In this document: positions 13,159 through 56,240 of the stretch, piece after piece
Position numbering within the stretch: the first letter of the stretch is position 1
How the letters are laid out: every line of letters begins with the position of its first letter
Origin: Pecten maximus
Lineage: Eukaryota
Reading direction: 5' to 3'
Assembly (NCBI RefSeq): GCF_902652985.1
Contig: NC_047018.1
Span: 12,834,001-12,898,000, forward strand
Length of the DNA stretch: 64,000 nt
Made by a program: the position numbers and the translations under genes
Notes under the pieces: model-generated
The model's input: the letters and a program-made list of their open reading frames with translations, nothing else
Told to the model about the DNA's origin: nothing
Databases searched by the model: none

Positions 13159-13912
13159 CTATGTACAGTTTGAACAGGCTGTAACATTATATTTATATCT
13201 AAGGTCTAAATTTTGAAAAAGACGGTCCAAACATCTCTGCAATATCAGCACTATGATTCATACGATCCTTTTATTAATTTATTTACAATGGAATCATTTT
13301 GGGAATTCTCACCACTGACCTAATTCTATACATTCAGATCATCATGAGATTTCCACTCCTTCAAGCCCAGAGAAGATTCCTGACTGGTTAATTTAGATGA
13401 CACGTGAATCACCATGGTAATACTATACCCACTTTTTATTGAGTTCTGGCCTTTTAAAATGCCCATGAGAACTGTAGGTGTGCACAAGTTCTTCTGTTTA
13501 ATTCCATTAACCCAGCTCCACAATGACAGCTGTTGAGTTTCAAATGACAGTTAAGGCTTGGAGACAGTACACCATGGCAACATCTATCTGGCAATAATAG
13601 TCCAGTTGCTATCTGTAGAGATTTCTCTACTGTTGAAGACAAGCCTAAGGGTTTACCCTTGTGAAACAAACGTATTCATGTTCATTATATCTGTTTCAAA
13701 ATCTTTCAGAGTACATGTACTTTCCCCCAAATCCTAATCACTCCACACACTAAGGAACTTGTTCAATTCCTAATCACAAAAGAATCTCAAAAAGAACAGA
13801 TTTCTAATTTGGAGGCATATTTCATTACGTTTTGTAGCAGTAACAGATTAATGTACTTTAGTACGTAAAATCCTGTCCAACCTCTCTCAGTTTTTCTGTT
13901 TTATGTACAAAT

Positions 13913-14218
13913 TAACTTACCATGAATCTACGGTACCAGTCTTTTATATACAAACTTACCATGAATCTACGGTACCAGTCTTTTATATACAAACTTACCA
14001 TGAATCTACGGTACCAGTCTTTTATATACAAACTTACCATGAATCTATGGTACCAGTCTTTTATATACAAACTTACCATGAATCTACGGTACCAGTCTTT
14101 TATATACAAACTTACCATGAATCTATGGTACCAGTCTTTTATATACAAACTTACCATGAATCTACGGTACCAGTCTTTTATAATAAACTTACCATGAATC
14201 CACGGTACCAGTCTTTTA
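13913..14218. repeat. 39-bp minisatellite duplicating the exon 1 / intron donor junction, 8 copies including the real one
   Basis: Unit AAACTTACCATGAATCTACGGTACCAGTCTTTTATATAC. Confidence 0.95.
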
Positions 14219-14303
14219 TTTCTGCTTTTGAGAACTTTGTGTTGTTTACTAAAAACTCCAAATCCTCCTTTGGCAGTTTCTTGCTTGAAGATTTGTTTCC
14301 CAT
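14193..14303 (-). CDS. ncs-2: Neuronal calcium sensor 2-like, coding exon 1 (MGNKSSSKKLPKEDLEFLVNNTKFSKAEIKDWYRGFM)
   Basis: Manual translation from the ATG at 14303; this exon is missing from the ORF track. It has an MGxxxS myristoylation motif and an NCS-type N-terminus (KLxKEDLEFL...IKxWYRGF). The donor is ATG|GTAAGT at 14192. A pyrimidine-rich acceptor (ttcttttctaattttccag) ends at 14315, so the exon begins at 14314 with 11 nt of UTR. Confidence 0.93.
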
Positions 14304-14509
14304 TGTTCTTTATGCTGGAAAATTAGAAAAGAAGTAATGTGTTAAACATAAACAATTAAAAGACAAACAATAGTAATGATCAGGGACTGATCACAGATAT
14401 AATAAGTGTATAAAGGGATTCTCATACAAAGTCAGCAGAGTGAAGAGCAAGGACATTTTATTTATAGTAACAGTGACCTCTCTCTATGACCTCCATGACT
14501 CTTTGTGAG

Positions 14510-14810
14510 GGATAACAAGCCTGCATTGCTCAACTGGTATTCACTTCTTTGATTCTAGGCCTTTCAGTTAATCAGATATCTTTTGAGCATTTTAACAAAT
14601 ATGACCCCTGTGACCTTGAATATGTGTCATTTCTTTTTTGAAGTTTGCTGGAATTCATCCGAGGAACCCTATATAGCTAATAATGATTATAGGCTTTTAA
14701 TGAATCAGAAGCAGTAATTCAAGTGTTTAAACAAATTGGATTTCTTTGACCTTGAATATTGGTCAAGGTCATTTCTTTTTGTCAGACAACCTCCCAGGAA
14801 TCTTGGCCCT
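14510..14810 (+). mobile_element. Degenerate HINE-like internal monomers
   Basis: Two monomers about 140 bp apart with TGACCTTGAATAT..GTCAAGGTCATTTCTTTT motifs. Confidence 0.45.
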
Positions 14811-15217
14811 TTTGGCTAGGCTGGTTGTTAAGTTGAGATATATATTCATTCTACAATATAACTGGTTTGGTTGGAAAGAATTTTGGAACTTAAACTAAAG
14901 TTAAAATTGGACTTACACAAAGGTGTACAGCTAATAATCAGGATGACATTTATATGGTGGTCTCCAATCCCCCAATTATTACTTTTTATATATCAGAACT
15001 AAACAACAGTAATGTTGTAACAGTAAACAAAAATGATCATCTGAGACAGACAGGAAATAGATATCTGTACATTATGTAACCAATTGTTATTGTTTTACTG
15101 TCGGGGAAACAGACCAGAAAATAACATGCAATCAGACATGTACTCAATTTCTGAATCAAGCTGTGTACATATTTATAGGTCCCTGACCACCATCTGTATG
15201 CTGGGCCTCCTGTACAA

Positions 15218-18270: not shown

Positions 18271-18734
18271 CAAGGAGACACCCAAAAACATCTACAAAGA
18301 CTTGGATCCAGGAAAAGTGTCTCCAGGTTTTCTTCCTATCATCTGTCCAGTTTCCTGATCAGCATTTCCATAGTCTCAATTAGAATAAATCATACCAACT
18401 TATTTGAGTATAATCAGTTAATCATCGTTTCAGTGCTGTTAATTAGTATTGGGAAATGGACTGAGCTATGCAAGGATCAATTGTAAAGTCTCATCATTAC
18501 TTCATACAAACCCAATATCCCACGGCCCTGTAGTAACCCCCTGTGTAAAGCAGACACCATCAGACCACCAAGCAGCCTTGAATACGATAATCGACTTAAC
18601 TTGTTGTCCTTTTGTAAGAGTAAAGACACAGAATCCATCATAAACACCTGTACCAGTATTGGTCTTGTAATATTCTACCTGGCAACAACCTATACCAATT
18701 ATTACCAGTAAACTACCACACCTCTACATATTAT

Positions 18735-19350
18735 TACCTACACATATATACTCATGCCTCACCTGTACACATCCTTACCTACACACATATACTCATGCCT
18801 CACCTGTACACATCCTTACCTACACATATATACTCATGCCTCACCTGTACACATCCTTACCTACACACAAATAGTCTTGCCTCACCTACACACATTCCTA
18901 CCTGCATACAAATATTCCTGTCTCACCTGTACACATTCTTACCTACACACAAATAGTCTTGCCTCACCTACACACATTCTTACCTGCATACAAATATTCC
19001 TGTCTCACCTGTACACATTCTTACCTGCACACAAATATTCCTGTATCACCTGTACACATTCTTACCTGCACACAAATATTCCTGTCTCACCTGTACACAT
19101 CCTTACCTACACACAAATATTCCTGTCTCACCTGTACACATTCTTACCTGCACACAAATATTCCTGTCTCACCTGTACACATTCTTACCTGCACACAAAT
19201 ATTCCTGTCTCACCTGTACACATCCTTACCTACACACAAATAGTCTTGCCTCACCTACACACATTCTTACCTGCATACAAATATTCCTGTCTCACCTGTA
19301 CACATTCTTACCTGCACACAAATATTCCTGCCTCACCTGCACACATTCTT
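18735..19350. repeat. Minisatellite, 41-42-bp unit, ~15 copies
   Basis: Unit CCTGTCTCACCTGTACACATTCTTACCTGCACACAAATATT. Confidence 0.93.
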
Positions 19351-20142
19351 ATAAGTTCTAACCAACATAAAACAAAAATTCTGTAAAAAACTATTTCTTC
19401 ACACACCTGTAAACCAAATCTTGACATTTATATAAATCCTTCTTTCTCTTACCTGTAAGCAGTGTATCGGATAATATACTAATTATGCTTGTTTCCCTCT
19501 CTGTTTGAACTAGAAATGGTGTTTTGTACCTGTCATCAACACATCAATCATTTATACAGCATGTGTATCAGGTACAGCAAACCTATATCTTTATTATCTA
19601 TACTGTCATTAGTTCTCATACACCTTAATTACTCCGGTATATAATTGATTTTTAACACTGTAAACACACAGTGACACTGTAGTGTGCCAGACTACTACAG
19701 ACATTAACAACAACGGTCAGATATGTACGATACATTCAGATGAGTGACAGAAATATCTAGCTGGACCTGGTACAGATCTAAAATACTATGTAGAAACATG
19801 TGTTTGGCCCTGACAAATATGTTCTGGAGTACAGTACCTTGTGTCTGGAGAATGATCAGTAATAATCCTAGAAATCACACAGAAAGCACAGGCTGATTGA
19901 TGCACACAACTGATACATATACAGACAGCTCGCTTTAAATTCCAGGGAGTATAAGTGTAGAGCAATGTTCCTCTGCTGTGTGCTGCCTACAGCTCCAGTA
20001 CTGAGATACTGTCAATGTGTGCGGCTTATCACTTTACCTGGCTTGTCAACCATTCATGACAAGACAGCTGCTCACCAAACCCTAACACTAGCTACACCTT
20101 AGGAGTCAGGGTAGTCCATCTCAAGGTATCACCAAAGTTAGG

Positions 20143-53740: not shown

Positions 53741-54349
53741 ATTGTAAATGTGTGTATCGATCATGCAACAAGGTCTGATTATCTATACCTACATTATATA
53801 ACATCACTTTGGTATGTTATACTGAAAAACATTCTACCAAGTACCAATAAGAAAAACATACAAATCTTTACCATATGATCATTTCACACCCGTACAACAT
53901 GTGATCCTAGACTACAATAGAACCATGTCACTGTCTAATAGGTACCAAACACAGCCATCAATTACAGGTACATATAACGAGCCCATCTAGTGGCAGTATA
54001 AAAGGGGGTTGTTTGGGGGTACACACTTTATTAATGAAACAACAATCTTGTAGTGCTCTGATGTTCTACAAGAGATATACAAGAGCAAAAGGCATTGTAG
54101 TATATCCTTACACTCAATCAAGTGTTCTGATGTGGAAGTTATTCATAGTACCAACACGCTCCATCAACAAAGTGCTTAGTTACACTATTAGTGTGAACAA
54201 GACAAACGGACCAGACCGTGGATAATTTAAATCATCGGAATCAGTAGCCATTGTGACTTTTGCCAGCTGACAATTAGGTTTGGTGCTTGGCGAGTAGGAG
54301 TGATTAGTTCGGTCAATGGGCAGCGGTCAACGGCAGCGTATGCTAGCCT

Positions 54350-55800
54350 CACCTGATTATGATGTTACTGTACTTATAGGGTATGTGAGTGAATCGTCTC
54401 CACTCCTCATCTGATTACGATGTTACAGTACTATAGGGTATGAGTGAATCGTCTCCACTCCTCATCTGATTATGATGTTACAGTACTATAGGGTATGAGT
54501 GAATCGTCTCCACTCCTCATCTGATTATGATGTTACAGTACTATAGGGTATGAGTGAATCGTCTCCACTCCTCATCTGATTATGATGTTACAGTACTATA
54601 GGGTATGAGTGAATCGTCTCCACTCCTCATCTGATTATGATGTTACAGTACTATAGGGTATGAGTGAATCGTCTCCACCCCTCATCTGATTACGATGTTA
54701 CAGTACTATAGGGTATGAGTGAATCGTCTCCACTCCTCATCTGATTACGATGTTACAGTACTATAGGGTATGAGTGAATCGTCTCCACTCCTCATCTGAT
54801 TACGATGTTACAGTACTATAGGGTATGAGTGAATCGTCTCCACTCCTCATCTGATTATGATGTTACTGTACTATAAGGTATGAGTGAATCGTCTCCACTC
54901 CTCATCTGATTACGATGTTACAGTACTATAGGGTATGAGTGAATCGTCTCCACTCCTCATCTGATTATGATGTTACTGTACTATAGGGTATGAGTGAATC
55001 GTCTCCACTCCTCATCTGATTATGATGTTACTGTACTATAGGGTATGTGAGTGAATCGTCTCCACTCCTCATCTGATTATGATGTTACTGTACTATAGGG
55101 TATGAGTGAATCGTCTCCACTCCTCATCTGATTATGATGAATCGTCTCCACTCCTCATCTGATTATGATGTTACAGTACTATAGGGTATGAGTGAATCGT
55201 CTCCACTCCTCATCTGATTATGATGAATCGTCTCCACTCCTCATCTGATTACGATGTTACAGTACTATAGGGTATGAGTGAATCGTCTCCACTCCTCATC
55301 TGATTACGATGTTACAGTACTATAGGGTATGAGTGAATCGTCTCCACTCCTCATCTGATTACGATGTTACAGTACTATAGGGTATGAGTGAATCGTCTCC
55401 ACTCCTCATCTGATTACGATGTTACAGTACTATAGGGTATGAGTGAATCGTCTCCACTCCTCATCTGATTATGATGTTACAGTACTATAGGGTATGAGTG
55501 AATCGTCTCCACTCTCATCTGATTACGATGTTACAGTACTATAGGGTATGAGTGAATCGTCTCCACTCCTCATCTGATTACGATGTTACTGTACTATAGG
55601 GTATGTGAGTGAATCGTCTCCACTCCTCATCTGATTATGATGTTACAGTACTATAGGGTATGAGTGAATCGTCTCCACTCCTCATCTGATTACGATGTTA
55701 CAGTACTATAGGGTATGAGTGAATCGTCTCCACTCCTCATCTGATTATGATGTTACAGTACTATAGGGTATGAGTGAATGTCTCCACTCCTCATCTGATT
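54350..55800. repeat. Minisatellite, 55-bp unit, ~27 copies
   Basis: Unit GAGTGAATCGTCTCCACTCCTCATCTGATTATGATGTTACAGTACTATAGGGTAT. Confidence 0.95.
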
Positions 55801-55830
55801 AGACAACATGTAAACATCTTATGTCCTTAC

Positions 55831-55922
55831 CTTCTGTCCTCAGCCAACAATGCCACTTATAATCACACTTGGTCCCAATCAAACTGTCACTTCAGTGGCA
55901 TCAATGGATCACCATACACAAT
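55831..55922 (-). other. Candidate non-coding 5'UTR exon of the NCS gene (92 nt)
   Basis: A unique island between two arrays, bounded by acceptor ctctgttttatag| and donor AAG|gtaagg, with stops in all three frames. Confidence 0.3.
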
Positions 55923-55949: not shown

Positions 55950-56240
55950 GCAAAACATACAGGGAGCATTACAACACCATACAGGACATAACATACGGGG
56001 GGATTACAATATCATACAGGACAAAACATACGGGGGGATTACAAAACCATACAGGACATAACATACAGGGGGGATTACAACACCATACAGGACAAAACAT
56101 ACAGGGGGCATTACAACACCATACAGGACATAACATACGGGGGGATTACAATATCATACAGGACAAAACATACAGGGGGATTACAATACCATACAGGACA
56201 TAACATACAGGTGGGATACAGGACACAACATACAGGCACA
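55950..56240. repeat. Minisatellite, ~35-36-bp unit, ~8 copies
   Basis: Unit CATACAGGGGGATTACAACACCATACAGGACAAAA. Confidence 0.88.

Follow-up and report, generated by a model that had tools for sequence, protein, structure and literature searches.

How does an exon keep to its own 5′ splice site when nearly exact copies of that site follow it in the intron? The question is raised by a neuronal calcium sensor 2-like (NCS-2-like) gene of the scallop Pecten maximus, which lies in the 64,000 nucleotides of DNA analysed here (the window). At the end of the first coding exon, TRF reports a minisatellite on the minus strand (13914-14219, period 39, 7.9 copies, 97% matches), and the minus strand of the window carries eight copies of the donor word ATGGTAAGT (ATG/GTAAGT), all within this array, with exon ends at 14193, 14155, 14116, 14077, 14038, 13999, 13960 and 13921. 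The first spacing between donors is 38 nt and the other six are 39 nt. Each unit consists of the last 27 exon bases and 11-12 nt of intron, arranged head-to-tail; the first copy holds the authentic junction, and the remaining copies are intronic, with the donor consensus intact in all seven. Two variants of the unit alternate along the array. The extra donors are identical to the authentic one from -8 to +8 (six copies) or to +7 (the last copy); all seven carry a G>A change at -9 that is absent from the authentic exon, and two of the seven a further G>A at -11. A 29-nt pattern drawn from the unit has eight matches in the 918-Mb genome, every one of them at this array, and we therefore reject a mobile-element origin of the unit.

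Four exons of the gene were placed (Table 1). The second coding exon matches a scallop protein of 192 aa, named neuronal calcium sensor 2-like, at 100% identity, the first is identical to the first 37 residues of scallop NCS-2-like entries, and there is an EF-hand_1 Pfam match (E 1.8e-15). The predicted product is an NCS-2-like protein by its length of ~190 aa, its N-terminal MG, CPxG in EF1, its EF-hands and best matches named NCS-2. RNA contig letters beyond 14316 map uniquely to 55833-55862 in two runs. The exon bearing the ATG, which a preliminary description of this DNA had called coding exon 1, is thus internal, and lies behind a 41.5-kb intron (14315-55830) and a 5′UTR exon. Within that intron, a 41-bp array (18719-19351) contains 27 AG/GTRAG donor-like motifs in sense orientation, and RNA contigs splice across it. 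The 5′UTR exon itself carries two short upstream ATG frames and has arrays 30 bp from both of its edges (54347-55801 and 55951-56217).

Table 1. Exons of the NCS-2-like gene and parts of the donor array, in positions of the window
Feature	Position	Strand	Basis
Upstream 5′UTR exon	55831..55922	-	3′ end from RNA contig letters; probable 5′ edge from an AG
First coding exon, NCS-2-like gene: 122 nt, internal, ATG 14303, 37 codons, phase-0 donor	14193..14314	-	RNA contigs; protein identity
Authentic donor GTAAGT (14192-14187) and 38-nt first extra unit with TAA	14155..14192	-	Sequence; junction 14193 to 12262 in 4/4 runs
Six 39-nt units, stop-free in their own donor frames, each with G>A at -9	13921..14154	-	Sequence
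Last donor, then the beginning of unique intron with ATAAAA at 13904-13899	13899..13920	-	Sequence; putative role in origin
Second coding exon: 273 nt, two EF-hand matches	11990..12262	-	RNA junction; Pfam
Last coding exon to stop codon, then 3′UTR	9336..9530	-	Matches C-terminus of P0121; putative junction

What would the use of an extra donor do to the protein? The first extra unit contains an in-frame TAA at 14180-14178, such that every downstream donor reads VSLL and then TAA from the ATG at 14303; a slip to any of them thus stops translation at codon 42. All seven are frameshifted as well (+38+39n), and the hypothetical exons that they would end are 160-394 nt long. A single 39-nt unit in its own donor frame is open and reads VSLYIKDWY[R/H]RFM. 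All seven extra donors are therefore nonsense because the first unit is short, at 38 nt, the 39-nt units being open. These results uphold the preliminary description on three points: eight tandem donors, spaced by a 38-nt first unit with an in-frame TAA and six units of 39 nt; a unit copied from the last ~27 nt of the exon and the first intron bases; and the consequence of choosing a downstream donor, which is a premature stop and not an insertion of 13 aa. Among 120 homologues, the 95 that matched a W..F-CPxG pattern could be scored at the junction (the 25 without a match being left unscored), and none had the 13-aa insert; 94 of the 95 had the normal 3-residue spacing, and one (P0083) has a spacing of 38 residues. 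Isoforms with a 13-aa insert were likewise rejected, with none in six cluster members or in the 95 pattern-matching homologues.

The repeat unit appears in DNA sequencing runs. Both DNA runs examined, one of which may be the source of the assembly while the other is a different sample, yielded a 69-nt contig on the array, as expected if a 39-mer cycle collapses at k=31. Its depth was 29.7 and 264.4, as compared to about 8 and 49-75 for neighbouring pieces; depth is not a valid measure of copy number, and we rejected it as such. Neither DNA run covered the authentic exon, which proves nothing. An assembly artefact, in the array itself or in its length, had been named earlier as a possibility. 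No contig spans the array, and the contigs give no copy number; against an artefact, however, stand the unit contig at raised depth in two samples and the alternation of the units between two variants, and we regard this explanation as scarcely credible.

Which donor is used in RNA? From 24 sequencing runs listed, we examined two of the four DNA-type and six of the 18 RNA-type runs (five studies; the RNA-type label was guessed for five runs and on record for one), working with contigs throughout (Logan). The stretches compared with the runs were 14120-15100 and 14120-14345; both contain the exon together with two extra copies, the first ones, and splicing at any of the downstream donors would leave 14155-14192 in the mRNA. 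A single contig on the exon was present in each of the six RNA-type runs and ends at 14193, and depth is zero over 14120-14185; the same array stretch caught unit contigs in both DNA runs. The RNA contigs cover 14193-14316 without mismatch in five runs, and 14193-14262 in the sixth. Beyond 14193, the unaligned letters equal the opening 30 nt of exon 2 in 4/4 runs in which they could be told from dispersed repeats, giving the junction 14193 to 12262. In these contigs, the only donor seen joined to acceptor 12262, the acceptor for which the preliminary description had proposed a junction count, is that at 14193. None of the six RNA-type runs produced a contig entering the array, in contigs that drop rare variants, at depths of 4-117 and with no NMD block.

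Taken together, these data show the assembled mRNA to be spliced at the first donor, and they make it very probable that the array is a tolerated passenger, likely derived from local tandem duplication between two ATAAAA hexamers. One such hexamer at 13904-13899 matches another at 14219-14214, and they lie at opposite ends of the repeated stretch. Such a pair is what a microhomology-guided duplication of 43 nt, the likely origin, would leave behind. One deletion and one substitution would suffice to turn the 16-nt unique linker into either the first linker (11 nt) or the inner one (12 nt), so that the first unit did not have to arise by mutation of a 39-mer. Minisatellites are very dense in this genome, and some of them begin at splice donors.

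The preliminary description had also stated that the sequence does not explain how the first donor wins. The outcome is the usual one for arrays of this class, and it fits an internal exon, because the first donor is then the one nearest the exon's own acceptor. On this basis the exon would be defined from the acceptor at 14315, and the first strong donor met, with the whole 122-nt exon upstream of it, would be committed before or over the copies. A preference for the downstream site has been reported for donors separated by >40 nt (Eperon 1993, cited by PMC5933811), and the 38-39 nt spacing here would fall just under that limit of ~40 nt. A rare slip would stop at codon 42 and be lost or degraded, and for that reason selection against the array would be weak. 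Concealment of the copies by RNA structure was rejected: all eight donors are predicted to be mostly paired (mean unpaired 0.05-0.29), and the authentic one sits in the strongest predicted hairpin (-7.9 vs -4.8 to -5.2 kcal/mol for the copies). This 7-bp predicted hairpin, at 14185-14210 on the minus strand, is weakened in every copy by the G>A at -9. The array is most likely without function, its extra donors likely being silent passengers. The proposed mechanism of donor choice draws on human work rather than on molluscs, and some points speak against it: the donor of the human F7 array, discussed below, is weaker (CV 74) than that of the NCS-2-like gene, near-perfect downstream F7 sites did compete, and a second scallop array (L012) repeats the pattern, which could reflect selection.

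Alternatively, the extra donors might be used at a real rate and their products destroyed, with copy number setting how much of the mRNA is productive. The donors have the same strong core, the premature stop lies 296-530 nt ahead of the last junction for all seven downstream donors, and forms that are rare or degraded by NMD would escape contigs, such that there may be a small NMD leak; set against this are the six RNA-type runs described above. The premature stop also falls only 123 nt after the ATG, a zone near the start in which NMD is often weak in mammals. Two observations from human genes keep the idea alive at low odds, namely the association of CBS repeat number with lower activity (as cited in PMC5188458) and the activation by heat shock of latent donors behind stops in human cells (PMC3510495); in F7, by contrast, copy number is described as having no effect on donor choice (PMC1557585). 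We consider such leakage unlikely, and the earlier proposal that copy number tunes productive mRNA finds no support either in the RNA-type runs, six of six of which lack a downstream form in their contigs, or in F7, where 1-12 copies had no effect. The bolder version, in which leakage of the extra donors is greatest under heat stress, array length is a heritable NMD-based dial on NCS-2 dose, and the one-base offset of the first unit, which arose independently in an NCS paralogue (L012, below), is a selected safeguard turning in-frame EF-hand insertions into nonsense, strikes us as decidedly improbable. If this version were true, the genome, with likely hundreds to >1000 arrays of varied spacing and frame, would constitute a natural screen of tandem-donor choice.

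A further possibility is that the copies are suppressed by the stop that precedes them (the SOS model) or by the UAG that the G>A change creates shortly ahead of each extra donor, an hnRNP A1-type core. A stop does lie ahead of all seven extra donors, and the G>A at -9 separates all seven copies from the exon; one founding mutation copied during expansion would, however, explain the latter. According to PMC9634572, motifs containing UAG are bound by hnRNP A1, which shifts splicing towards distal donors, but UAGAU is not among the high-affinity motifs given there. For CBS, a single change in the second repeat is reported to block alternate splicing; in-frame pseudo-sites of F7, on the other hand, are described as unused without any stop (PMC1557585). 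Downstream donors that are in-frame and stop-free also exist elsewhere in the scallop genome, at 18 of 18 positions in one array (L092) and at one of six in another (L090). We judge suppression of this kind very improbable, and return to the passenger reading.

Does the stop in the first unit reflect a rule? An NCS paralogue (L012, 998-1520; G000:C5, about 46.944 Mb, minus strand) has an independent donor array at the end of an EF-hand exon, with 12 donors, open 45-nt inner units and a 46-nt first unit that stops after 8 codons; it was the only one of 11 other NCS-like loci examined to carry a donor array. This parallel suggests that the first-unit stop is a selected safeguard, a view opposed by L092 and L090 and by the escape of edge units from homogenisation that PMC3087553 describes for amphioxus 'mirages'. 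L090 has an in-frame, open first unit. We rejected the rule that the first unit is always frameshifted if inner units are 3n and open: two arrays are for it (the NCS-2-like array and L012) and two against (L090 and L092), while L078 (phase 2, immediate stop) and L081 (no certain frame) are uninformative. Because L092 and L090 have open in-frame extra donors, the stop is not a rule, and such arrays can persist in the genome with no stop behind the first donor.

Several of these loci merit separate mention. L092 (G000:C1:3244737-3245770, minus strand) is an EGF exon followed by a 57-nt array, and its reading frames make it the best natural case in which to ask whether the first donor has priority even with no stop behind it, or else a candidate source of coding repeats that vary. 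L046 is a UCK-like exon followed by a 61-bp array that copies its end. A second NCS-like gene lies ~105 kb from the NCS-2-like gene (G000:C4:12741357-12741626), on the same strand and with 54% identity over exon 2; no array was found within 1.5 kb of this exon. Other NCS-like genes occur in pairs on C4, C5 and C17.

How unusual is such an array in this genome? The window holds 37 merged minisatellite arrays, and 65 arrays were found in 20 stretches of 10 kb elsewhere (200 kb; 32.5 per 100 kb), so the mere presence of a minisatellite is within background; extrapolation from these 200 kb gives ~300,000 arrays genome-wide. TRF arrays of any kind cover 53% of the window, in which no other coding gene is evident from open frames. 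Triples of donor words 28-58 nt apart gave 12,647, 9,195 and 7,220 matches, as compared to 1,136, 3,197, 2,426, 3,142 and 2,227 for five control words of the same composition, all of these being matches rather than arrays. Among the 17 donor-word arrays first listed on contig C1, 15 of which had a frame long enough for scanning, six begin where an exon with an above-cut-off Pfam match ends (trypsin, cupin, two EGF, CUB and HYR); three further arrays look exonic by eye, and one sits in an integrase fragment. Neither of the two control-word arrays scanned had a Pfam-matching exon. At the start of G000:C1, L080, L082, L085, L090 and L091 are donor-spanning arrays at trypsin, cupin/JmjC-like, EGF, CUB and HYR exons. 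If this region of C1 is typical, the genome contains hundreds to >1000 donor-spanning arrays; random seeding predicts ~650-2,000 such births for an assumed 100,000-200,000 donors. As this already yields comparable counts, the enrichment over controls does not prove a donor hot spot, and that claim was rejected. Donor-spanning arrays are common in Pecten maximus, and that of the NCS-2-like gene is an ordinary new example.

Alone, the NCS-2-like array matters little, its class being published and its assembled RNA normal. It is of use as a natural experiment, one among many, on tandem-donor choice, an old question tested so far mostly in human minigenes. A comparison of junctions across arrays, with spacings <40 vs >40 nt and with open vs closed frames (L092 vs the NCS-2-like array), would separate upstream priority, stop-dependent suppression and NMD masking.

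The array belongs to a known class, that of the human donor VNTRs (F7, CBS and 6-16) and the amphioxus 'mirages'. No donor-spanning array in a scallop was found among the 20 of 83 literature matches listed, and the consulted part of PMC10078293 contains nothing specific on such arrays. The closest relative is the 37-bp VNTR of F7 intron 7 (Borensztajn et al. 2006, PMC1557585), the first unit of which spans the end of an internal 124-nt exon. In F7 minigenes the most upstream donor alone was used, and the next one took over upon its mutation; donor choice did not vary over 1-12 copies, and pseudo-sites in frame were passed over as well, although downstream sites of near-perfect or perfect consensus did compete. 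The two arrays share a unit of 37-39 bp, a first copy over the exon-intron boundary, an internal exon of 122-124 nt, and 5-9 identical donors of which the most upstream alone is used. They differ in that the F7 unit has 4 exon bases and the scallop unit 27, and in that the NCS-2-like donor is closer to consensus and its extra donors are all nonsense. The donors of CBS and 6-16 (IFI6) are likewise described as repeated 15-25 times behind the authentic one; there, however, two pseudo-sites are used (as cited in PMC1557585), whereas none was seen in use for the NCS-2-like array. The 31-bp VNTR of CBS intron 13 is the sole member of the class, as far as these sources go, with a link to copy number, activity being lower where repeats are more numerous (as cited in PMC5188458). 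Further human relatives are the arrays of lamin B2 and PDGF (PMC1557585).

Latent 5′ splice sites behind in-frame stops, which are stress-activated and are discussed as 'suppression of splicing' (PMC3510495), resemble the scallop copies in being intronic consensus donors with a stop ahead that are normally unused; those are scattered single sites, whereas the NCS-2-like gene has exact tandem copies of its authentic donor. The 'mirages' of amphioxus (BflGb6/BflGb9 globins, Adh3, troponin C and PGBD5), described in PMC3087553 and PMC3902484 as leaving regular splicing undisturbed, are the relatives from another marine invertebrate. They too are minisatellite-like duplications of exon-intron boundaries; the NCS-2-like array differs in lying in a bivalve genome, and on the donor side.
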